DNA from: Candidatus Heimdallarchaeum aukensis
Lineage (GTDB): Archaea; Asgardarchaeota; Heimdallarchaeia; Heimdallarchaeales; Heimdallarchaeaceae
DNA length: 64,000 nt
Reading direction: 5' to 3'
Assembly: GCA_021513695.1 (NCBI GenBank)
Contig: CP084166.1
Coordinates: 1,408,001-1,472,000 of the forward strand
Positions within the stretch are counted from its first letter, which is position 1. Each line of letters opens with the position of its first letter. Below the pieces are notes generated by a model that saw only the letters and a program-made list of their open reading frames with translations, was not told the origin of the DNA and did no database searches. Below are positions 20,023 through 40,873 of this stretch, one piece after another. A program made the position numbers and the translations under genes.

Positions 20023-21642
20023 CTAAACATGAGTATTTAGGAACTGGATTCCACCAACGGGCGAATATTTAGAATATTGACGTTTATAAGCTCTTAAGTA
20101 ATCTGATAAGCCAGTGATACTTGCTAGACAAAACCAAGGATAACTTACTTCTTGCCAAGTTTTTTTACTGGTATAGATTCCCCACTGCCAAGATTTTAAC
20201 AATGATACTTTTGAAGTGGGAGAATCATCTACTTGCTTTATTTTTTCTAACTTTTCAAGAATAAACGCTCTAAGACTTTTTGCATTTTCAAAAAGTTTAT
20301 CTTTTTCATTTTTCTTTTTTGCTTTAGAAATTTGCCCCAGAAGTTTAAATAATTCTGGTGTGATTAAGCTATATTCCTTCAATTCTGGAGAATTACTCAT
20401 TTCTTCTATCCAATTGGAATTGTAAACCATTCTAGTATATTTTAATAATACGGGAAATTGAACACCAAGCTTTCTAACTGCAGGAATGACTTGAGCATTA
20501 TAATTTATCTCCCCGGGCCCAGATACTCTCAGATACACGGGCATAACAGATTGAAGTGTTGCTTGATTCGTATCTAACCTTGCAGCCAAATTTCTCGCAT
20601 AAGGTTTTAAATTTATTTTCTCTTTGTCAATATCAAAACTTATTTCTTGACCGTCAATTTTACACTTGCCTGAAAAAATTAGAGAATCTTCTTCTTCTTT
20701 GCAAGACAAAACAACCCTATGTCCATTTTCACACTCATAGAAAAAGGGTGAATAATCTTTTTCTTTTTTTGGAGTAGTAGGACGTAAACCGAGAGAAAAA
20801 AGTTTGTTAGAAGCTTTATTGAATTCTTCAATATATTCATCTCTTCTTTTAAGAATAGGTTTATATCCTTTTACAAGTAGTTCTCTGATTTCAGGATGAG
20901 AAGTTGGAAATAATACAAGCCCCCAATCGTTGATGATATTTGCTTGGATTCCATAAATTAAAGCAGCCCAATCACCAAAAGAAAAAGAAGAACGATAAGT
21001 TTCTCTCATGAATGTAAGTATATGTTCTACCCTCTCAAGGAAAAGATTTTGCTTTTCTTTGGGTAAAAGAGATCGAAACTCGAGAAATATGTTCTTTATA
21101 ACCTTTAAGTTCTCATCTAACCAATCAAAATTTCTCATTGAAATTGCAAAAGAAGCAATATTTTCTTGAATGCTAATTAAAGAAATAGGTTTAGTAAAGG
21201 AAGTTTGGGCATTTGGTATGTGAATTGTTGTGATTTCAGGCTGAACCACATCATGAGTATTAACTAAAAAAACAGGTGATAATTTACGCCCATACTCTTT
21301 ACTTAATTCTGAGAGTGTAACAGTAGCCGCAATTTTATTACCAATTAGACTTACTCCCCCAAAAATCGTTGCTTGTTGACCTGCTAAAACAACGCCATTG
21401 TTAATATTATGAATATTGGATCTAACTCTATCTGTAAGTAGACCCAACTTTTCATGATATGATAATAATATTTTCTTCAAAGATTCAACAGTATTTGTTT
21501 CAATATATACTTCTGGAAGTTTACTTACTTTTTCCAGAGCTTCATGAAAAGTTTTAGGAACAAAGTTATAAAAGTACTCTAAATAAGGATGTTTTATATT
21601 TTCCCAGATGTATGAAGAGTATAAATCACCTGCTGTATTCAT
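20023..21642 (-). CDS. Hypothetical 539 aa protein
   Basis: Long ORF with balanced composition. No motif that I can assign confidently. Confidence 0.45.
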   Translation of the reverse strand: MNTAGDLYSSYIWENIKHPYLEYFYNFVPKTFHEALEKVSKLPEVYIETNTVESLKKILLSYHEKLGLLTDRVRSNIHNINNGVVLAGQQATIFGGVSLIGNKIAATVTLSELSKEYGRKLSPVFLVNTHDVVQPEITTIHIPNAQTSFTKPISLISIQENIASFAISMRNFDWLDENLKVIKNIFLEFRSLLPKEKQNLFLERVEHILTFMRETYRSSFSFGDWAALIYGIQANIINDWGLVLFPTSHPEIRELLVKGYKPILKRRDEYIEEFNKASNKLFSLGLRPTTPKKEKDYSPFFYECENGHRVVLSCKEEEDSLIFSGKCKIDGQEISFDIDKEKINLKPYARNLAARLDTNQATLQSVMPVYLRVSGPGEINYNAQVIPAVRKLGVQFPVLLKYTRMVYNSNWIEEMSNSPELKEYSLITPELFKLLGQISKAKKKNEKDKLFENAKSLRAFILEKLEKIKQVDDSPTSKVSLLKSWQWGIYTSKKTWQEVSYPWFCLASITGLSDYLRAYKRQYSKYSPVGGIQFLNTHV

Positions 21643-26967: not shown

Positions 26968-27618
26968 TTATTCAAGTGGTATAGAAACTACCATTATGTC
27001 TTTTTCTTCTACTTCATCTTTGACTATTTTCTTTATGACATCTTTTGCTAATTCTTCCATCTCTTCAATTGTTAAATCTTCTTTGTACTTTTCTTTAAGA
27101 ATGGAAATTGCTTCTGTATCTCCTTCTCCTATTGCTTTTGCTTTTACAGAGATTACTCCGCCACCAGGGTCTACATAATACAGAGATGATCCTGTATCAT
27201 CTACTCCTCCTATCAACAATCCTACTCCAAAAGGCCTTACTCCTCCTTGTTGAGTGTAAAGTTGGCAGTAATCTCCAATTTTTGTAGATAATCCCTTAAT
27301 ATCTGTTGGGAGATCATAGGTCATTCTAAATATTTGAGCTTCTAGTCTTGCTCTTGAAATTAGTACTCTCCCATCTGCAGCTACTCCTGCAAAGGTTGCA
27401 TATACTTTTTCATCTATTTTATGTACTTTGGCATCTGGTTCGTTTAAATCAACGACTCTTAATAAGCCAGCTAGTACAACACCATTTTTACTCTTTATAC
27501 CTACTGCTATGCTTCCTCGTCTTACGGATTCTCTTGCATATTCTACTTGTATCAATCGTCCTTCAGGACTATACATGATTGAAGTTCTATCATATCCCAT
27601 TGATTGTGGACCTAACAT
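26968..27618 (-). CDS. psmA: Proteasome alpha subunit
   Basis: The N-terminal 'YDRTSIMYSPEGRLIQVEYA' alpha-subunit signature is present. 216 aa. Confidence 0.9.
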   Translation of the reverse strand: MLGPQSMGYDRTSIMYSPEGRLIQVEYARESVRRGSIAVGIKSKNGVVLAGLLRVVDLNEPDAKVHKIDEKVYATFAGVAADGRVLISRARLEAQIFRMTYDLPTDIKGLSTKIGDYCQLYTQQGGVRPFGVGLLIGGVDDTGSSLYYVDPGGGVISVKAKAIGEGDTEAISILKEKYKEDLTIEEMEELAKDVIKKIVKDEVEEKDIMVVSIPLE

Positions 27619-27619
27619 T

Positions 27620-28306
27620 TTATAACTCCTCCAATATTTTCTTTATCTCTTCTTCAGTTAACCAACGGATTCCATCTTTGTTTACAACCAATGCATCCAT
27701 ACCATTTCCAGTTGCTGTATCTCTGCTAATTGAAGTTGATAGTGCTCTTAGTCCTAGTTTAATTGCTTCATCTTCTGTAAGACCTTCTTTCCAGAAAGCT
27801 TCTAATACACCATAAGAGAAGAGCGAACCTGAACCTGTTGAAGCATAGTCTTCATCAATTATTGCACCAGAAGCATCCAAATTATAAACGTGAGGACCAT
27901 ATTTATCTAGACCACATACTAACATTGCAACATAGAACGGCATGTAAGATCTAAACTGTTCATATAGTATAGAAGCAAGAAGATTTCCTGCCATTTTTGT
28001 TGTTGGGGGATAACCTCTGTTTAGTTCATATAGATTTAAGTTAGCTTTAGTAAGGTTAACTAAATATTGGGCATCAGCTACTAAACCAGCGATCGTTGCA
28101 ACAGTATAATCATTTAATTGGTGGAGCTTTTTAGCTCTCTTCGAAGCAACGAAGGTTCCTGCAGAAGCTCGTCTATCAGTAGCAACAACAACACCATCTT
28201 TAAATCTAAGAGCAACAGTAGTTGTCCCTTTCATTGGATTTTCAAATGGATTTTGTTGTCCATAATTATTCATCATATTCATTTTCAAACCTCTATTTTT
28301 TTTCAC
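27620..28306 (-). CDS. psmB: Proteasome beta subunit (with propeptide)
   Basis: 'GTTTVALRFKDGVVVATD' contains the catalytic Thr after the propeptide. It lies immediately upstream of psmA with a 1 nt spacer. Confidence 0.9.
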   Translation of the reverse strand: MKKNRGLKMNMMNNYGQQNPFENPMKGTTTVALRFKDGVVVATDRRASAGTFVASKRAKKLHQLNDYTVATIAGLVADAQYLVNLTKANLNLYELNRGYPPTTKMAGNLLASILYEQFRSYMPFYVAMLVCGLDKYGPHVYNLDASGAIIDEDYASTGSGSLFSYGVLEAFWKEGLTEDEAIKLGLRALSTSISRDTATGNGMDALVVNKDGIRWLTEEEIKKILEEL

Positions 28307-28458: not shown

Positions 28459-29154
28459 ATGAATGCAATGAATCTGCATAGAGATGATTTTGAGAAATTC
28501 CAATATAGTGAGCCTAACTTAGGAAACTTACCATATGACTTTTTTTACTCAAATGAATATAATTACATTACACTCCCTGAAGTGCAAGTTCTCTTTGCTT
28601 TATCAGATTCAAGTGTATCATATACATTCTCCGGACTAAGAAAGAAAACTCAATTACATCAATATAAAATCTCTAAATCTTTAAAAAGGTTACAAGAGCG
28701 AGACTTAATTGATAAGGAACAAGATGGAACTTATTCCTTAACAACAAAGGGAGAAGAATTTTCTCGAAAACTAGTCAAGGAACTATTAAAAAGAAAAAAT
28801 ATTTCTTATGAAAAATATGACGATTTTCAAACTCAAAGGGTAAAATTATTTACAAAAAGAAGTTTAGACCAACATTATATTAAAAATAAGCTTTATGGAC
28901 GTTGGTTTGGTGACTTCAGGTTTTTATACGCTAAAGAAGATGGAAAAAGTTTGAAACTTTGTTGGGAAGATACAGAAAATTGGCAAATAACTTTAGAGAA
29001 CACTTCGAATAACCAGTTGTACATCCAATTTAATCACAGAGATTATGAAAAAACGAAAATTGACAACTTCACTAACTGGCTATCAAAAGAGTTACTTACA
29101 GAAGTTGATATTCCATCTTATTCAATAGATAAAGAGTCAGAAGTCTACAATTAA
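28459..29154 (+). CDS. Hypothetical protein with a winged-helix (MarR/PadR-like) DNA-binding region
   Basis: 'YKISKSLKRLQERDLIDKEQDGTYSLTTKGEEF' resembles a wHTH recognition helix plus wing. Confidence 0.4.
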   Translation: MNAMNLHRDDFEKFQYSEPNLGNLPYDFFYSNEYNYITLPEVQVLFALSDSSVSYTFSGLRKKTQLHQYKISKSLKRLQERDLIDKEQDGTYSLTTKGEEFSRKLVKELLKRKNISYEKYDDFQTQRVKLFTKRSLDQHYIKNKLYGRWFGDFRFLYAKEDGKSLKLCWEDTENWQITLENTSNNQLYIQFNHRDYEKTKIDNFTNWLSKELLTEVDIPSYSIDKESEVYN

Positions 29155-29184: not shown

Positions 29185-30930
29185 TTAATTTTCAAAAACC
29201 GAATGCATGTCTGAAATATCGTCTTCTGGTGTTTCTGCAGTGGGGTGTAGAAACACTTCTCCATCTAATATCGTAAAGGGAATCCTCCTTTTATCGATCC
29301 ATGGTGCAATTTCTCTAAATTCTTTAAAGAGATCATTACTTACAATCATTGCTGTTTCCTCTTCTGCTATTCTAAGAATAAATTTATCTCCGTCAACTCT
29401 CGCAGGTAGCATCTTTATAGCTCCTTCTTTCACTAGTTGATCCAACCTTCTTTGATTATCAATTTGATACCTAAGTGCAGCATCTGCAACCGTAATTATT
29501 TTCTTAAAGTTTGACCGACTAAGTTTATTGATCATTGCTTCAATGTTAGCTAACTTCGGATGACCAGCAGCATCTTTTTCTTCCCAAGCAACATTGCTTC
29601 CATCAACTATGACTACATCATAAGGATAAGTTGTTTCTGGAAATATGCGTTCTTGCTCACCTTTAGTTATCTTTACTAATCCTTTAATGATGTCTCTTGA
29701 GAAATAACCTATTCCTAGAAGTACTGTTATTAAAAGAATGATAATTGTAATATTTTTATCAAATGGATTTAACGGTTCGTCATTAGATATAATCTGAATA
29801 TGAAATACACCACTAAAATAAAAACTTGTAAACCAATAAATATCAGGTTGAATTTCCCAAGCTATTTGAATCGAAAGGGTGATCGTGGTATTGCCAGCTT
29901 CTATGGGTTTATCCTTTAAGATTATATGATGCCCTGAAAAGCTTGGAGATATAGCAAATATTTCTCCATTAACCTCTGAAAAAGCTATTAGAGGACAAGT
30001 GATTTCATGTTCAATATATACAACATCATCCTCAAAATTTGCTATGTTATAAGTGATTGAATAGTCTTTATTTAGTGAAGCATTCACGGAAAAATGAACA
30101 TTACTAATTGAAATATTAGGATAACAGATTATATACAAAGGCTCACTTAATACAATAACAGGATTATCTGGATCATCTAGATTTGTAAATGAAACCTGAT
30201 ATGAATGTTTTTGGTATAAAGGCTCATTTGTAAAAAACCTTATTGTTCCTTTGTAGCTTTCTCCACTATTTAACATTAGATTCAAATATGGAAGATAGAT
30301 AATGGGACTAGCTTCTGTCCCTTGCCGATTAACCAAGGCTGAGATAGTTACATTAGTTACAGCTGTACCCCCAACATTTACCAACTGGAAGTCTACTTCA
30401 GTAGTTGAATTACGTTTGAGGATTATTTTATTATTAACAAATGTCATTTCTATTTGCCCACTAGGGAGAACCTCGAGGGTAAAAATAGCAGTTTGATAAG
30501 TGGTTATGACATTTGTTCCATTAACAAAACTTTCGACTGAATAGTTTCCTGCTGGCTGGCTGTAAAAATCTTTTTTGTTGATTTTTACTACATAATCAGT
30601 TGAAGAATTACTAACTATATGCTTGTTTTCAATGATGTTTGCAGTTTCATAAGAGATGTTATAAAAAATAGTAGCATCACCATCAATAGGACTACCATTT
30701 AACCAAGACAAATGGAAAAATAAAATTAAATCATTTATTCCGCGTTTAATTACAGAAGAATTCAAAGATAAAGTAAAATTCACTTCTGATTTCTCTGAAA
30801 AATTATAATAATTCGAAACTGGTTCTTGTGAAACAATTACTTCAGAATTTGACATTGGAGAACTTATTAAGAAACTTGAGAACATGAAGAATGTGAGGAT
30901 AGATAGCGTAATTACTAGCTTTTTTTTCAT
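29185..30930 (-). CDS. Receptor-like membrane protein with an extracellular region, one transmembrane helix and a cytoplasmic Zc3h12a/NYN ribonuclease domain
   Basis: A signal or anchor sequence (MKKKLVITLSILTFFMFSSFLISSP), then a ~380 aa Asn/Ser/Thr-rich ectodomain, then the TM helix 'ITIIILLITVLLGIGYF'. The following ~170 aa contain 'VVIVDGSNVAW', 'IITVAD', 'MIVSNDLFKEF' and 'W..RRIPF', matching the MCPIP1/Zc3h12a NYN RNase motifs. Confidence 0.7.
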   Translation of the reverse strand: MKKKLVITLSILTFFMFSSFLISSPMSNSEVIVSQEPVSNYYNFSEKSEVNFTLSLNSSVIKRGINDLILFFHLSWLNGSPIDGDATIFYNISYETANIIENKHIVSNSSTDYVVKINKKDFYSQPAGNYSVESFVNGTNVITTYQTAIFTLEVLPSGQIEMTFVNNKIILKRNSTTEVDFQLVNVGGTAVTNVTISALVNRQGTEASPIIYLPYLNLMLNSGESYKGTIRFFTNEPLYQKHSYQVSFTNLDDPDNPVIVLSEPLYIICYPNISISNVHFSVNASLNKDYSITYNIANFEDDVVYIEHEITCPLIAFSEVNGEIFAISPSFSGHHIILKDKPIEAGNTTITLSIQIAWEIQPDIYWFTSFYFSGVFHIQIISNDEPLNPFDKNITIIILLITVLLGIGYFSRDIIKGLVKITKGEQERIFPETTYPYDVVIVDGSNVAWEEKDAAGHPKLANIEAMINKLSRSNFKKIITVADAALRYQIDNQRRLDQLVKEGAIKMLPARVDGDKFILRIAEEETAMIVSNDLFKEFREIAPWIDKRRIPFTILDGEVFLHPTAETPEDDISDMHSVFEN

Positions 30931-31004: not shown

Positions 31005-31383
31005 AGGGTGTGCGGGAATACCCCTGATTCTGTTCGGAAGTCATTTACATGAAACTTCTTAGCAACATTCATCTATGCGCTTTACCCGACTTAGAAAGTC
31101 CTATTTAAGCTTGCACCACGATGTATGATCGTTTCATCGCTCCCTCTTTACTCCTCAATAACTTCATAGGACACCCTATGTGTCATATCATTGTCAACGT
31201 AAAGAGGACGTGTCGTTTCTATTTCAGGGACCACGTTCTCACGTGATGGGTTTGCACCCATATCGCTTGTTAGGTGTCAGGAGGTTCCTCAGGTTTAACC
31301 CGAAAGTTGCTCTCCCGCTCACCCTAAGAGTACTATGTTTTTATCAAAAATAAAGATAGCTGTCACAGATTGCTGACATTCTC
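31005..31383 (-). ncRNA. GC-rich non-coding segment downstream of the tnpB remnant; candidate omega-RNA/right-end element, or another structured RNA
   Basis: About 380 bp with clearly higher G+C than the flanks and no ORF in any frame. It lies directly 3' of the tnpB C-terminal fragment on the same strand. Confidence 0.3.
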
Positions 31384-31704
31384 TCACGCTAAAGCGTGGG
31401 AGGTTCTTGATTCTACAGAGAGAAGCAAAGGGCGTGCCACCGCCCCGTTAATGACTCCCGCAGGGAAACGTTCACCCTGAGCGAGACCTATATTTAAACA
31501 ACCTACAGCGTCTCTATGGGGCTCTAAGCCACAATCAAGACATTTGAATAATCTTTTTCTTTTGAATACGTGCGTAGAACGACAACGGGGGCAAATAGAG
31601 GAACTGTGTGCTTCTATAACTTCTTTTACGCTTATACCGTATTCTTCTGCCTTTGCTTTGATTCTCGTAACGAGATAATTATGACTCCAAAAATTGTGTA
31701 CCAT
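31384..31704 (-). pseudogene. tnpB: IS200/IS605-family tnpB (OrfB) remnant; only the RuvC-III and zinc-finger C-terminus remains
   Basis: 106 aa fragment. 'EEYGISVKEVIEAHSSSICPRCRS...FKCLDCGLEPHRDAVGCLNI' matches the TnpB C-terminal 'YTSQxCxxCG...CxxCG..xDRDxNAAxNI' region. The ~300 aa N-terminal part is absent. Confidence 0.7.
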
Positions 31705-31976
31705 AGAATTGGTTTTTTTTTCTCTTTAAATTATTTTTTCTAATTCTTGTTATATTCTTTTTTATTACAGTTTTATATTTAACTTAAGCGTTTTTAATTC
31801 TTACATAATTTATCTCAACCCTGAAGGGTATGAGCTTTTTTGCGTATAAAATAGCAAATATATTTTGAAAATGGAACAAAAATATTAAATCTTAAGTCGA
31901 TACTTTACAACAAAAGACATTAAATATCGAATGATTTATTTAGGTAAGGAAAATTCAATGTTTGAAGAGTGAAAAA

Positions 31977-32057: not shown

Positions 32058-32762
32058 TTACAGAAGTGAATGTTTTGTTTTATAAAAGGGGCTTGTCTTT
32101 TTCAAGGGAACCTCCAAAAATGCTTCTGCAAACCCCACTTGTGCTTGTGTACCTCTCATTTTTGTTCTATACTTATGAAACTCAATATAGAAATTATTTC
32201 CTCCTTTGTCGAGCTGAGAACTATAACATTTCATAGCTTTTTCTTTTACTTCAACAAAATCTGAAATGTCAACAAGTACATGAGGGTTCGATAATAGAAC
32301 TGTCGTTTCAGTGAAATAAAGCTTAGAAACAATAAAGGAGTTTGAATACTGTGTTTCATGTGCTGCCCATTCTATTGCCTCTTTAACCATAGAACTTGTT
32401 AAACGATGTTCAACATGATAATCATTATCCATATGGGTCACTATTATTTCAGGACGATAAGTAAGAATAAAATCAATAATTTGATTTTTCATTTCTACTT
32501 CATTATTTTCTATTGTTTTGTAATTTAGGATTATTGCTTTTTTAACGTTTAAAATCTTTGTAGCTTCTATGTATTCTTTTTTTCTTACTTCATTTGAAGT
32601 CAAACAAAGCGAATATACATTATTTCCCAAAGCGGAATAGCGAGCAATGGTTCCTCCTGTACTAAAACTTTCATCATCAGGGTGTGCAAAAATAAAGGCA
32701 ATATTCATAAAGAAAATTAAAAAAAAGTAGAGATAAAGATTTCTATCTTCTAAAAAAATCAT
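32058..32762 (-). CDS. LmbE/PIG-L family N-acetylglucosaminyl deacetylase
   Basis: N-terminal 'AHPDDESFSTGG' is the HPDDE zinc-binding signature. 234 aa. Confidence 0.8.
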   Translation of the reverse strand: MIFLEDRNLYLYFFLIFFMNIAFIFAHPDDESFSTGGTIARYSALGNNVYSLCLTSNEVRKKEYIEATKILNVKKAIILNYKTIENNEVEMKNQIIDFILTYRPEIIVTHMDNDYHVEHRLTSSMVKEAIEWAAHETQYSNSFIVSKLYFTETTVLLSNPHVLVDISDFVEVKEKAMKCYSSQLDKGGNNFYIEFHKYRTKMRGTQAQVGFAEAFLEVPLKKTSPFYKTKHSLL

Positions 32763-33757
32763 TATTTTTTGGTGATATAGTCTACTGCATTAATCCCTGC
32801 CTTGTATCCTTCACCCATTAATATTGCACAATAATCTTTTTCTCCTGTTATTACTCCTGCTGCAAAAAGTCCTGGAATGTTTGTTTCTTTTATATTATTT
32901 GTTTCTAAGAATCCTTCTTCATCAATTCTTATATCGAGTTCTTTCAACATTGAGAAATCAGGTTTATCTTTTAATTCTATAAAAACTGCATTTACTGAAA
33001 GTTCTTTTTCTTCTCCATCTTCAACAAATTTTATTCCAGTTACAAATTGTGACCCCACTACTTCAACCTTTGATAGATCAATTCCATATTTTATTTTTAC
33101 ATTTGGTGATTTTTCCAGTTTTTTCATGAAACGTTTGTCAATGTCAAGAGTAGATGATGGACAAAGAACAGTGACTTTTCTGCAATATTTTCTTAAGAAA
33201 AGAGCTCCTCTTGCAGCGAAATTATCTTTTCCAATAATGCACACTTTCTTTCCTCTAAACAAAGCTCCGTCACACACCGCACAATAAGATAAACCTTGTC
33301 CTTCAAATTCCTCTTCTCCCTTAACTGCACCTTTCAATTCTGGAAGATCATAAGCTAGAATAACAGCCTTTGCTTTGAATGATTCCCCATCTTCGGTCAC
33401 TAAAACAAAATCTTCTTCTTTTATGATCTTTGAAATTTCTTCCTCTTCAATCTCAATTCTTTTCTCTTTTACCTTTAAATTATCATCTTGTTCATCAGAA
33501 GATGAAAAATAAGAAATATATTCATTGTTAAATTTTTCAATTTGCCCCAAAATCTGAACAATGTAATCAACGCCCACTACGCTTTCAACCCCAGGAATTG
33601 TGTCAATGGTTCCTTTTTTTGCTGTATTTGTATCATAGGGTATTCCAAAAAGTTTTATTTTAAGGTCTGGGTTTTTTGAATATGCAGCTATCGCAGCTGA
33701 TAACCCTGTCAATCCTGAACCAATTATAGCTAAATCAATAGTCCCATCTCTATTCAT
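32762..33757 (-). CDS. Thioredoxin-reductase-like FAD/NAD(P) oxidoreductase
   Basis: 'DLAIIGSGLTGLSAA' FAD motif and 'CAVCDG' redox-active disulfide. The ORF track starts at a GTG at 33952; ATG Met66 at 33757 places the GxGxxG motif at the N-terminus, so I use that start. Confidence 0.65.
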   Translation of the reverse strand: MNRDGTIDLAIIGSGLTGLSAAIAAYSKNPDLKIKLFGIPYDTNTAKKGTIDTIPGVESVVGVDYIVQILGQIEKFNNEYISYFSSSDEQDDNLKVKEKRIEIEEEEISKIIKEEDFVLVTEDGESFKAKAVILAYDLPELKGAVKGEEEFEGQGLSYCAVCDGALFRGKKVCIIGKDNFAARGALFLRKYCRKVTVLCPSSTLDIDKRFMKKLEKSPNVKIKYGIDLSKVEVVGSQFVTGIKFVEDGEEKELSVNAVFIELKDKPDFSMLKELDIRIDEEGFLETNNIKETNIPGLFAAGVITGEKDYCAILMGEGYKAGINAVDYITKK

Positions 33758-33879
33758 ATAAGAAGTAAACACAGAATTAAAAATAAAGTTAACTATCGAT
33801 TTTTTTGCGGATAGTTTTTCGACATCCTTTTTATAAAATAACGAGAAAATATATATAGAAAATTTTATGGGGACTAAAA

Positions 33880-34098
33880 ATGGGCAAACAAGAAATTTCT
33901 GTTTCAGGACAAAGATTAATTCAATTACTTGAAGAAAAAGGTCCTTTGACACAAAAACAATTAATTATTGAGTCAGAGATACCTGCTCGAACAGCTAGAT
34001 ATGCCTTAAAAAGATTAATCGAAATGGGATTGATCATAAAAAGGAATAATTTAGCAGATATGAGAAGCGTCTATTATTTCTTAGTTGAGGAAAACTAA
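33880..34098 (+). CDS. Small winged-helix transcriptional regulator of 72 aa
   Basis: 'LTQKQLIIESEIPARTARYALKRLIEMGLI' is a classic HTH recognition helix. It is divergent from the reductase-like gene. Confidence 0.5.
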   Translation: MGKQEISVSGQRLIQLLEEKGPLTQKQLIIESEIPARTARYALKRLIEMGLIIKRNNLADMRSVYYFLVEEN

Positions 34099-36770: not shown

Positions 36771-37856
36771 CTAGGCAAATGGTCTTTCTCTTAATAGGGC
36801 ACGAAGTAATTCCAAATTTGTTTGTATTTTAGGTGAATTGATGGGTAAATTTTCATTTTTTATGGAATCAATTATATCATATAATATATATGTTGCAATA
36901 TGGAAATCTATTGTATAACCATCTGGATACATCGATTGGAGGTCTTGTTCTACTCCAATTTCAGTTAGAGTTTTATCATATTCGTATATAAATTTCATAA
37001 CTTTATTTTTTGTTGAAGTAAAAGATTTAGTACTTTTATATTCGGTTATAACATCAAGAGCAAAATAAGCACCAATATCCTCGCATCTATCTCTATTAGC
37101 TTCTATAAATTCTGAATTAAAAACATAAACTTTCACTTTTTCGCAATCTTGTTCAGTTAAACTGGAACGGTCTGAAGATGAATCAATAACCATTTTTAAG
37201 TTAGACTTATGAAAATCACCATGAATAACAGCAGAACCCTTGGATTTTTGTAAAATAGCTAAGGAGGGAACAAGGAGATCAATCAATTCTTGTTCTAGAT
37301 CCTCGTTGTTCAATAAAGAGATCAAAAATAGAATGACCGTTTTATAAGGTTCAACATCAATTTCTTTTGCTCCTATCCCATGAATTAAGGCCAAGGTTTT
37401 TGCTGCGAGTTTTAATGAATCATCTTCTGAAATGTTGCTTTTTACGTCAATCCCTAAACCTGCTTCATAGATAATACACTTGTTTTTTGCACTTTTATAG
37501 ATAATAGGAGGAACTAAAACACAAGGATAGTTTTTCAATGAGGAAGCTAAAATTTCATAATTGCTAATTTCTTTGATATAAGCCTCTTCGTCCTTACTGA
37601 ACTTTACTATTAAATAAACGACATGTTTACCCAATTCAGATTCTAAATTATATGTTACAAAGTGTGTTTTTGAACGAGAGGAACGAAAATCCTGGGAAGT
37701 AACATCAACAATGGATATTTGATGGGGAGTAGCGTTTGTTTCTTTTTCAACAGATTGCTTAAAGTATTCTTTTAAACTCTCTCCAATTATAGTAAGTATT
37801 CTTTTCAGTTTTTCAAAATCTTTTTTATTGTTTGGAGAGTTATTTGCTTTTTGCAT
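36771..37856 (-). CDS. Protein-kinase-like phosphotransferase (APH/ChoK-type), paralogue of 2322..3359
   Basis: 'VIHGDFHKSNLKMV' catalytic loop and a downstream 'FNSEF...DIGAYF' region. Homologous to the 2322..3359 product. Confidence 0.55.
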   Translation of the reverse strand: MQKANNSPNNKKDFEKLKRILTIIGESLKEYFKQSVEKETNATPHQISIVDVTSQDFRSSRSKTHFVTYNLESELGKHVVYLIVKFSKDEEAYIKEISNYEILASSLKNYPCVLVPPIIYKSAKNKCIIYEAGLGIDVKSNISEDDSLKLAAKTLALIHGIGAKEIDVEPYKTVILFLISLLNNEDLEQELIDLLVPSLAILQKSKGSAVIHGDFHKSNLKMVIDSSSDRSSLTEQDCEKVKVYVFNSEFIEANRDRCEDIGAYFALDVITEYKSTKSFTSTKNKVMKFIYEYDKTLTEIGVEQDLQSMYPDGYTIDFHIATYILYDIIDSIKNENLPINSPKIQTNLELLRALLRERPFA

Positions 37857-38290: not shown

Positions 38291-40873
38291 TACCTTTACT
38301 GTTTACTCTAATGGAACATATGTTATTTCAGTCTCTGATCTTACTGATTTTGGTAAATATCAGTTAGTAGTATTATTAACCTTAGATGGTTACGTTGATC
38401 AAAGCTTCACTCTGAACATTTTACTTTTAGAGAGAGAAACAACATTGAGTTCAACTACAGGAACTAGCCTACAGATTTACACAATTGATACCTTGAATCT
38501 ATTTTTAGAATACAAAGACAAAAATACTGATACAGCAATAGAAGCAGATGATAATCAAATTTCTTTTGCTCAAGGAACAGGAAATGAAACTTTAACCCTC
38601 AGTTTTTACTTTGAATCAATAAGTTACAATGGTTACACAGTCACTCTTCATTCTTTCACTTTTGACCCTAATGAAGCTACTGCAGCAGGATATGTATTTG
38701 TTTTCAACATTACACTTTCAAAATTTGGATATTCTAACAATTCAATTATAATCTATTTAAGAGTTGATATCAATCCTTCTGATATTCAGTGCCTAGAAGA
38801 TAGTATACTTATTGATTCTTCACAACAAGCATCTTTTACAATTTTCTATATTGATACAGTTTCTAATACAAACATTACTGGTGCGTTCATTAGCGTGTTA
38901 CAGTTAAATGGTTCTTCTTCTGATATCGATTCACTTTTAGCTTATAGTTCTACACCCTTTTACATTGTCTATATTGATCCTGATAATGTAAATGCTGTAG
39001 ATAAGACCTTTATGTTTAATGTTACACTCTATAAGGCGGGATATGAGAATCAATCTTACATTATTTACCTAACCGTAGTGTATAATCCCACCACAATTAG
39101 TGCAGAAGAAACAGAAAGTACCATTTTTGCGGATCAAGTCGCAGAATTTACACTGTATTATATAAATGATAAAACAGATACATATATAGAAGATGCTTCA
39201 GTAACCATTGAAATTGTCAATGGTTCAATGTATATAGAAGAATATTATGCTACAGGAACAAGTCCCTATATGTTTATATTAACCCTTATGATTAAAATTC
39301 CTCAGATTTAACTTTTGAAATAAGAATCACAATATCAAAAGGAGGATATAAAGAACAATCTATAGTACTTTATTTGCATGTAAAGATTCATCCTACAAGG
39401 ATATTCTCCTCTAGTAGCACTCAAACAATTTATGCAGATGAAACAGCAGATTTCACTGTTTATTACTGGGATACTTACAATGTTTTAATTGAAGAAGCAA
39501 ACCATACAGTAGAACTTACTCTTGGTGATTCAATAGATGTTGAAGGAGTAAGTTTGTTACATAACCAAGTTCTAGATGCTTACATTATCTCTTTTGATTT
39601 TAATGACTTTACAGTAACAAATGAAACATTTATTTTTAACATTACAATGTGGAAACCAGGATTCGAAAATCAATCAATAATACTAACGGTAAAAATCCAT
39701 GATTTCATTAGATATGAATTAAGCATAAACATCGATAGCGATACTATTCAACTTCTAAGTACAGTAACATTTACATTAATTCTAAAAGAAGCTATTATAC
39801 AGTTACTTGCTGATGATAATACAAAATTAGCTTATTCTCCTATTGGAGAAAATGTAACTTTAACTTTATTCCTTCTCGATAATGCTAATAATATCATTGA
39901 AACATCTACATTTAATATTACAATAAGTGATATTCAAAATGGTAATTATATTGGTCAATTCAAATATAGAGTTGAAAATTGGAAAGCTAAAAGCCTTAAA
40001 ATAGAGTGCACATATCTTCCTAAACAATCAAATATTGTTTCAACAACGAACTTCGATCTAACTTTTGAAATAAAGTTTCCATATTTCAATGATCTTTTCT
40101 ATGAATATCTATCTTACATGATTGCAGCAATTTCAATAATTGCCGTAGCAGCAATAACCTTGGCTGTTTATTTTGGAGTAGTTCGTCCCAAAAAACAAAG
40201 GCAACAAGCAAAAAGAAAACAATATTGTGATACTGTGTCAAATATACTTCAAAGCGTCACATCCATAAAGAAAGTTCTTGTTGTTCATAAAGATACTAGC
40301 TCTCCTGTTTATGAATTAGACTTAGGTTCAGATATGAGAGTAAGTTCAGCGCTTGTGACTGGATTTTTGCAAGCTGTATCCACAATGGCAAAAGAGATTA
40401 CAGGAAAAGATAAAGATGTTGTCAAAAAGTTAGATTACGGAGATTTAATTGTTACTTCTGCAGGCACAAAGAACTATATTACTTACATTTTCTCAGATAG
40501 AGAACTTTCAGAAGATATAACAAATGGTCTAAAAGAGTTCGTAAAATACTTTGAGAAAAGATTTTCTCATGTTGCAGAAAACTGGATTGGTTCCTTAGAT
40601 GAATTTAAAAAAGCAGAAAAGGCAATTTTGCGTAATTTAACAGAGCACTTATATATTTGGACATTATATCCTATAACTACTAATCCAACAATGGAAAAAG
40701 AAGTAAAGAAACTAGGTCCAATGAGCCAAAAAATAATTAAATTCGTTAAAGATACAAAAGAAGTAACAATAGGAATAATACTTCAATATTTCAACAGGTG
40801 GCCAAAAGAAGAAACTATTTCACTTGTCTTTGCTTTAGTTGAAGATCATTACCTTCTTACAAAGAGAATATAA
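38272..40873 (+). pseudogene. Large repetitive surface (adhesin-like) protein gene with a C-terminal TM anchor and a cytoplasmic roadblock-like tail; 5'-truncated by the DDE-transposase remnant and internally frameshifted
   Basis: Repeated ~90 aa modules ('FTLYYINDKTDTYIEDASVTIEIVNG...NITLxKxGYENQSxIIYLTV'). The reading frame continues upstream of the ORF-track start, back to a stop at ~38268, without any Met. There is a frame break between 39311 and 39374 with repeat sequence on both sides. TM helix 'YMIAAISIIAVAAITLAVYFGVV' followed by a ~220 aa cytoplasmic domain. Confidence 0.55.

Follow-up and report, generated by a model that had tools for sequence, protein, structure and literature searches.

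A 64,000-nucleotide stretch of the closed genome of Candidatus Heimdallarchaeum aukensis (PMC8813620; contig CP084166.1, positions 1,408,001 to 1,472,000; hereafter the window) encodes a conserved bitopic glycoprotein whose NYN active site is intact and faces the cytoplasm. The gene, here called NYN-TM (TM, transmembrane), is complete and occupies positions 29185..30930 of the minus strand, stop codon included; it begins with ATG and encodes 581 amino acids (aa). The product of this open reading frame (ORF) is 100% identical to a database entry of Ca. Heimdallarchaeum aukensis, and 48 full-length homologs share 40-62% identity with it. An earlier note on this DNA, made from the letters alone, had treated the ORF as one gene. 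More than 70 full-length relatives share it, two closed genomes among them, which excludes an artefact of gene splitting or fusion. The databases name the protein 'hypothetical' or 'NYN domain-containing protein'; the domain call is already part of automatic annotation, and the novelty lies in the architecture, its conservation and its context. The NYN-TM proteins make up a genuine family, clearly delimited and conserved, whose architecture is unusual; it belongs to the membrane-tethered PIN-like ribonuclease (RNase) kind and is not a categorically new system.

Membrane topology of the NYN-TM protein

Kyte-Doolittle analysis revealed exactly two hydrophobic segments, one at aa ~4-24, directly after the initial MKKK, and one at aa ~393-415, both with a peak value of 2.18 (reached at aa 5-23 in the first). 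The basic and hydrophobic N-terminus (aa 1-26; 30853..30930, on the minus strand like all parts of the gene given below) is present in nearly all homologs and appears in the AlphaFold2 (AF2) model as a helix at residues 2-22, followed by disorder at 22-45. It is either a cleaved Sec-type signal peptide or an uncleaved N-terminal anchor, and the NYN domain is cytoplasmic in either case. The second segment, preceded by the extracellular domain (aa 27-392; 29755..30852), is the single TM helix (29686..29754). It lies within an unbroken modelled helix (392-422) that separates the confident all-beta region from the alpha/beta tail, and it ends in the juxtamembrane motif YFSRD (aa 409-413). Residues Y409, S411, R412 and D413 of this motif are invariant in 31 sequences of the subgroup that includes the window protein (subgroup 1) and predominant in 79 family members.

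The orientation was derived from three independent signals, namely the positive-inside rule, the conserved glycosylation sequons and the structure model, all of which place the NYN domain in the cytoplasm. Among 75 family members, the mean number of lysine and arginine residues was 0.37 in the 15 aa before the TM helix versus 3.67 in the 15 aa after it; the bias had the expected direction in 72 of the 75, and the N-terminus is likewise basic. All 14 N-x-S/T sequons of the protein are located before or at the TM helix, with none in the last 160 residues. Shuffling the ectodomain at constant composition gave an expectation of 6.3 ± 2.2 sequons, and 14 were reached in 0 of 2000 shuffles. In an alignment of 31 homologs, the sequons at N78, N91 and N137 were conserved in all 31 sequences, N193 in 30, N283 in 28, N108 in 26 and N129 in 24, a pattern expected only if the ectodomain is exposed to an external oligosaccharyltransferase. 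The layout proposed in the earlier note (signal or anchor, sequon-rich ectodomain, one TM helix, cytoplasmic NYN domain) thus agrees with hydropathy, sequon distribution and charge bias, and the topology check it had suggested places the NYN domain inside the cell and not outside.

The TM helix is joined to the NYN domain by a cytoplasmic linker (aa 416-436; 29623..29685) that carries a conserved FPE..YP motif in the alignment and has a low predicted local distance difference test score (pLDDT) at 422-432. The protein closes with a variable acidic C-terminal tail (aa 566-581; 29188..29235), disordered in the model and only 13% identical to homologs. In about 12 of the 48 subgroup-1 proteins, the residues after the acidic tail (29188-29199 in the window) read hydrophobic-Phe-(Glu/Asp)-x, e.g., VFEN, TFET, AFES or AFDR. 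This ending is not an HbYX motif.

The cytoplasmic NYN domain

The sole significant Pfam match of the protein was PF11977 (RNase_Zc3h12a), an NYN family placed in the PRORP group of the PIN-like superfamily, at aa 438-556, with an E-value of 9.2e-16 and 58.4 bits against a gathering cutoff of 23. The only other nuclease-related match was a weak, sub-threshold one to PRORP, and no NCBIfam model matched the protein. All homologs carry a precomputed PF11977 match. A search of the PDB with the single sequence gave weak matches to KHNYN and ZC3H12C; a profile built from 15 tails matched the crystal structures of ZC3H12C, ZC3H12B, ZC3H12A and KHNYN with E-values of 5e-10 to 1.5e-7. The Zc3h12a/NYN motif blocks noticed earlier are real and were found in the tail as VIVDGSNVA, ITVADAAL, IVSND and W...F.

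The active site of MCPIP1 consists of D141, D225, D226, D244 and D248 (PMC5499597). In the profile alignment, D443 and N446 of the DGSN motif corresponded to D141 and N144 of MCPIP1, D515 (VDGDKF) to D226, the second aspartate of the DDRF motif, D533 (SND) to D244, and E537 to D248. The Zc3h12a-like NYN (PIN-like) domain was delimited at aa 437-565 (29236..29622), and D443, N446, D515, D533 and E537 are its predicted catalytic residues. D443, N446, D515 and the likewise invariant D483 were present in 79 of 79 family members, D533 in 78 of 78 and E537 in 76 of 78. The acidic residues whose loss would have spoken against the earlier assignment are therefore intact, and on alignment four of the five MCPIP1 positions are acidic and conserved in the NYN-TM family.

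The tail shares 40-44% identity with short soluble prokaryotic NYN proteins (100-111 bits) and 29% with human ZC3H12C (36 bits). Judged by these sequence comparisons, it belongs to the prokaryotic group of PF11977, the function of which is recorded as unknown (PMC5499597). In the Regnase/ZC3H12 family, a CCCH zinc finger immediately follows the PIN/NYN domain (PMC4772114). The archaeal tail (aa 421-581) has no cysteine and hence no such finger; the only cysteines of the protein, C269 and C312, are both in the ectodomain. A UBA-like N-terminal domain, by which the PIN domain is activated in that family, is absent as well, and Pfam gave no further cytoplasmic domain, the linker between the TM helix and the NYN domain being ~20 aa long. 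NYN-TM thus falls within PF11977 but outside the Regnase/ZC3H12 family as strictly defined. The likeness to MCPIP1/Zc3h12a drawn in the earlier note holds for the domain and its aligned motifs and does not extend to a Regnase proper.

The ectodomain and its pairing with the NYN tail

The ectodomain, modelled alone from 37 sequences, reached a pLDDT of 90 and was all-beta, with three tandem immunoglobulin (Ig)-like or macroglobulin-like sandwich domains. The middle one is CARDB-like; it shows an N-x-GG...TNVT signature (NVGGTxVTNVT in the window protein) and a sub-threshold CARDB match in Pfam. The model indicates generic Ig-like modules, and no enzyme, nucleotide-binding or small-molecule-binding fold was evident in it. 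A Foldseek search with the full-length model, in which the tail has a pLDDT of 50-70, returned matches to Ig arrays only.

A profile of the ectodomain retrieved only proteins with a PF11977 tail, two fragments excepted. The possibility that the ectodomain is a sensor module shared with other outputs was accordingly rejected, with the limit that very distant relatives could be missed in the word-seeded search. Ectodomain and NYN tail form an obligate pair, and no paralog of either was found elsewhere in the 64-kb window.

Family, distribution and selection

The 48 full-length homologs were recovered by a word-seeded search and are all 555-597 aa long unless truncated; the named ones are all from Heimdallarchaeota. 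Six further proteins matched via the tail alone. The tail profile, run exhaustively as a hidden Markov model against 1.84 billion cluster representatives, yielded 1877 relatives, among which ~32 clusters (50% identity) were set apart at E ≤ 1e-44, followed by an abrupt drop in score to soluble NYN proteins. Nearly every complete protein in these clusters is 540-620 aa long, opens with a hydrophobic segment, carries 10-15 sequons, has its TM helix 35-55 residues ahead of DGSN and closes with the NYN domain. A divergent subgroup (subgroup 2) has an ectodomain homologous to the one in the window protein (99.6% probability in HHalign, E = 3.7e-24, 295 columns, 14% identity), and the tails of the two subgroups are 45-50% identical. 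Together, these values indicate that the whole architecture is ancestral to a broad Heimdallarchaeial clade. One copy was found per assembly in a scan of species representatives with two conserved peptide patterns, by which divergent copies could be missed; the gene is single-copy in all assemblies examined and vertically conserved across Heimdallarchaeota.

The NYN domain and the ectodomain share 79% and 30% identity, respectively, with the homologs. Between H. aukensis and H. endolithica, the ratio of nonsynonymous to synonymous substitution rates (dN/dS) was 0.064 for the gene, 0.078 for the ectodomain, 0.014 for its middle domain and 0.014 for the NYN domain; these values are approximate, as they come from one species pair with a dS of ~0.8. 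The ectodomain evolves faster, yet it is under clear purifying selection and shows no sign of an arms race.

The nearest Lokiarchaeial (Promethearchaeia) relatives are soluble TPR-NYN fusions, e.g., L034 4897-6411 and L035 3612-4757. Their PF11977 domain is C-terminal, with DGAN in place of DGSN, and the TPR repeats are another way to give the same RNase a protein-interaction module. Three short relatives (P0105, P0119 and P0170) have the same type of NYN domain tethered by an N-terminal TM helix only, from which it follows that anchoring alone needs no large ectodomain. Membrane tethering thus recurs in this NYN clade, but only the Heimdall family has the large three-domain exterior. Full-text literature searches that paired NYN or Zc3h12a with Asgard, archaea or transmembrane turned up no account of such an architecture, in line with what had been stated earlier. 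The Zc3h12a-like NYN protein of a paper on pseudomurein was considered in this context and is a different thing, namely a soluble protein encoded beside a membrane cyclase in methanogens.

A proposed mechanism of gating

In the mechanism that we propose, the N-terminus is inserted via the Sec pathway, ~370 residues form three N-glycosylated Ig-like sandwiches on the outer face, and one helix spans the membrane. The PF11977 NYN domain, a predicted Mg2+-dependent PIN-like endoribonuclease, is held ~25-40 residues from the inner membrane face and may cleave mRNA or structured RNA there. Lateral clustering or dimerisation by the ectodomain would gate the RNase, with the signal passing through the invariant juxtamembrane YFSRD helix. 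In this way, the state of the envelope, or cell-cell or surface contacts, could be coupled to local RNA decay, in a regulatory or housekeeping role and not as an abortive-infection toxin. For the statement as a whole, i.e., a membrane-tethered endoribonuclease gated by ectodomain-driven clustering, we see about an even chance of being correct.

The main rival, which we hold to be possible and distinctly less probable, is a constitutive membrane-tethered housekeeping RNase, the ectodomain of which is a structural surface-layer or spacing element without any transmembrane signalling. Single-copy, vertical inheritance in a housekeeping neighbourhood would be consistent with such a protein, and the extreme conservation of the NYN domain suggests a fixed cellular substrate. 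The generic fold of the ectodomain resembles S-layer and adhesin modules, tethering by a minimal anchor recurs in the clade, and membrane-anchored PIN proteins are known in bacteria (PMC5499597). Gating is nevertheless favoured, because relatives manage tethering with a single N-terminal helix and yet the three-domain exterior has been kept at constant size across lineages down to 14% identity, which exceeds the needs of a tether. It is further favoured because exterior and tail were never found apart, and because YFSRD, where the TM helix enters the cytoplasm, does not vary within subgroup 1 and predominates in the entire family. Finally, the PIN domain of Regnase-1 is inactive unless it forms a head-to-tail dimer (PMC4772114), which speaks against constitutive activity.

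Several observations weigh against gated RNase activity. The D225 of MCPIP1 has no aligned equivalent, since it is located in a ~7-residue, eukaryote-specific insert that is absent from the archaeal proteins; a nearby aspartate, D513, is present in 61 of 79 members. The pLDDT of the tail in the AF2 model is only 50-70, with alternating beta-alpha elements at 439-561, so that the model does not confirm the geometry of the active site. The low confidence is probably due to the near-invariant tail alignment, and support for the NYN fold comes from the sequence, not from the model. No fold known to bind ligands or to act as an enzyme was recognised in the ectodomain, which could be purely structural, e.g., embedded in or spacing a surface layer. 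The linkage to proteasome genes described below occurs in a single subgroup (Heimdallarchaeaceae-like), is broken in this genome by an inverted gene and may stem from common descent and not from function.

Comparison with known systems

Regnase-1/MCPIP1 (ZC3H12A), ZC3H12B-D, KHNYN and N4BP1 share the PF11977 domain with NYN-TM, including alignable DGSN, D-x-F and SND-x3-acidic motifs; the chemistry to be expected would likewise be that of an Mg2+-dependent endoribonuclease. Regnase-1 acts at the surface of the endoplasmic reticulum (ER) membrane and needs dimerisation of its PIN domain. In contrast to these proteins, NYN-TM is an integral membrane protein with an extracellular domain, and it lacks the CCCH finger, the UBA-like N-terminal domain, a KH domain and the ~7-residue D225 insert. 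Its low identity to ZC3H12C (29%) and its place in the prokaryotic PF11977 group set it further apart.

The closest relatives of the tail are the soluble prokaryotic PF11977 proteins (e.g., P0067 of a Thermomicrobiaceae bacterium and P0102-P0106) and the Lokiarchaeial TPR-NYN proteins (L034, L035), with 37-44% identity, 90-111 bits and the same catalytic motifs. Unlike NYN-TM, they have neither a TM helix nor an ectodomain, are stand-alone proteins of ~150-200 aa or TPR fusions, and are all uncharacterised; the nearest soluble ones come mostly from metagenomes. An independent, parallel layout was found in a Thermofilaceae protein (P0113; MEM1913402.1). Its N-terminus resembles a signal, its exterior spans ~220 aa, an R-rich stretch comes after the TM helix, and the NYN domain at the C-terminus matches PF11977 at 82 bits. 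It differs in its other, shorter ectodomain, in the coiled coils on both sides of the TM helix and in its phylum, Thermoproteota; it is also uncharacterised.

In bacteria, RNase Y and the PIN-TRAM proteins of COG4956 are likewise RNases tethered to the cytoplasmic membrane face. The COG4956 proteins comprise a PIN-like domain and four N-terminal TM helices (PMC5499597), whereas NYN-TM has two hydrophobic segments only and no PF01850 or TRAM match in Pfam, and thus is not a member of COG4956. Both groups have N-terminal anchors without a substantial exterior and belong to the VapC-like PIN group or the HD family, while in NYN-TM the RNase is C-terminal, behind a 370-aa glycosylated ectodomain.

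Ire1, which senses ER stress in eukaryotes, combines a non-cytosolic sensor domain, a single TM helix and a cytosolic endoribonuclease that is activated by clustering. NYN-TM resembles it in layout, as judged from hydrophobicity, sequons and the positive-inside rule, and in the proposed logic. This is an analogy and not homology; Ire1 has a Ser/Thr kinase and a KEN RNase domain, NYN-TM has PF11977 only. Heimdallarchaeia might own a dedicated transmembrane signalling RNase, the exterior of which would report the status of the envelope or secretory pathway by clustering; this clustering would dimerise and thereby activate a Regnase-type NYN RNase cutting membrane-proximal RNAs. Such a protein would be a prokaryotic analogue of Ire1 with its regulated IRE1-dependent decay (RIDD), or of ER-associated Regnase-1 decay, and would possibly act with the adjacent winged helix-turn-helix (wHTH) protein and the proteasome; we regard this proposal in its full extent as rather improbable. 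The exterior of such an RNase would point away from the cell or, where a species forms internal vesicles (bioRxiv 10.1101/2025.11.06.686947), into a lumen.

If the tail is an active clustering-gated RNase, NYN-TM would be the first receptor-type ribonuclease described in archaea and would give the prokaryotic branch of Zc3h12a-like NYN proteins, the role of which is listed as unknown in PMC5499597, its first function. As a single-copy gene conserved throughout Heimdallarchaeota, it offers a testable handle on a link between the Asgard cell surface and post-transcriptional control. Such a surface-to-RNA link in the closest archaeal relatives of eukaryotes would bear on the origin of eukaryotic membrane-coupled RNA decay. 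Even as a plain tethered housekeeping RNase, NYN-TM would bring into archaeal RNA metabolism a major player that is uncharacterised so far. The function of the protein is a prediction, and nothing in the ectodomain hints at a ligand.

Genomic neighbourhood

The window was collinear with H. endolithica over the whole 13.7 kb compared, at 87-88.5% nucleotide identity, with a 483-bp insertion as the sole interruption. The NYN-TM gene is followed by a gene for a wHTH protein (28459..29154, plus strand) and those for the 20S proteasome beta (psmB; 27620-28306, minus strand) and alpha (psmA; 26968-27618, minus strand) subunits. The proteasome genes were identified from the Pfam annotation of homolog loci and by tblastn. 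This gene order was present in all 24 distinct homolog loci whose sequence extends far enough downstream, with the proteasome genes at the same relative position and 64-98% identical. Upstream of NYN-TM, genes for Pyr_redox_2 and PIG-L proteins are usually found, the window included, and those further out vary among loci. The surrounding genes are of a housekeeping kind and encode BshC-like, M48 peptidase, metallo-beta-lactamase-fold and CBS proteins as well as metallophosphoesterases, and NYN-TM, beside the proteasome genes, has a core-genome location.

These data do not fit the genomic setting and the role suggested by the earlier note. It had placed the gene in a 10-kb accessory stretch with insertion sequence (IS) remnants and a wHTH gene immediately upstream, and had considered an abortive-infection-like function. 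An accessory island was rejected on the basis of the collinearity over 13.7 kb and the synteny in 24 of 24 loci. The IS remnants amount to one TnpB fragment upstream that the sister species lacks, and the wHTH gene is a conserved downstream neighbour, convergent with NYN-TM with 30 bp between the stop codons, and no upstream regulator. A defence or abortive-infection receptor, in which contact of a virus with the ectodomain would unleash the NYN RNase on host and viral RNA, is very unlikely in our view. PIN-like and NYN nucleases are common defence effectors, with CRISPR-associated NYN proteins treated in the literature, and a surface-exposed, receptor-like domain coupled to a potentially toxic RNase, with an exterior that evolves faster than the interior, would suit such a role. 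However, no PADLOC-DB v2 family matched the protein at E ≤ 1, and the gene, with one copy per assembly in a fixed syntenic position, is not part of a defence or mobile island. In addition, the dN/dS values of the ectodomain and its middle domain reflect purifying selection and are not arms-race-like.

The wHTH neighbour is a protein of 231 aa with a MarR-like winged helix at aa ~37-106 (Pfam MarR_2, HTH_45 and HTH_27) and an uncharacterised C-terminal domain; no sequence relatives were found in the PDB. Its orthologs (231-238 aa; 38-42% identity) are encoded directly after the NYN gene, and no distinct locus of sufficient flank length lacks the wHTH gene. The gene is inverted only in H. aukensis and H. 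endolithica and is co-directional with NYN-TM and the proteasome genes in 23 other Heimdall loci. No convincing inverted repeats that could explain the inversion were found, the only matches being weak, AT-rich and at chance level.

The four-gene block raises the alternative that NYN-TM, the wHTH gene, psmB and psmA form a functional module of a proteostasis-linked RNase, in which the RNase and the wHTH protein would control the 20S proteasome or be controlled together with it, e.g., for the joint removal of mRNAs and protein products of failed membrane or secretory protein synthesis. The block is invariant in the 24 loci and its flanks vary on both sides. Archaeal proteasome genes are classically linked to RNA-processing genes in the exosome-proteasome superoperon, eukaryotic PF11977 proteins carry ubiquitin-binding domains, and one of the relatives recovered here (P0111) has a UBA_N4BP1_C domain beside its NYN domains. 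We nonetheless consider such a module improbable. With the wHTH gene inverted in H. aukensis and H. endolithica, NYN-TM and psmBA cannot share a transcript in these two species, and all loci are from one fairly compact clade, in which the synteny may be inherited. Moreover, the subgroup-2 orthologs sit elsewhere, between the genes for threonyl-tRNA synthetase (ThrRS) and an AlaX-like protein, and the proteasome linkage is therefore lineage-specific.

In subgroup 2 (L004 2253-4070 and L005 2145-3974, both on the minus strand), the NYN-TM gene is divergent from that of a conserved soluble PIN protein of ~605 aa. This partner has an N-terminal PIN domain (PIN_12/PF01850, sub-threshold) and represents a second PIN-like nuclease near tRNA-related genes.

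The 483-bp insertion (31373-31855) lies ~440 bp upstream of the NYN-TM start and contains a 106-aa ORF (31384-31704, minus strand) for a C-terminal TnpB fragment (PF07282, E = 1e-16). It is absent from H. endolithica, no second copy was found in the window, and it is a decayed remnant of the IS200/IS605 type. Further out, three ORFs at 36771-37856 (minus strand), 38445-39311 and 39374-40873 (both plus strand), of 361, 288 and 499 aa, had no Pfam match at E ≤ 1e-4. Genes for a BshC-like Rossmann protein (20023-21642), a PIG-L BshB-like deacetylase (32058-32762), a Pyr_redox_2 reductase (32762-33952) and, in locus L001 (1223-4410), a GT4 glycosyltransferase are found near the proteasome genes repeatedly, in several Heimdall genomes, and this set looks like a bacillithiol-type low-molecular-weight thiol pathway.

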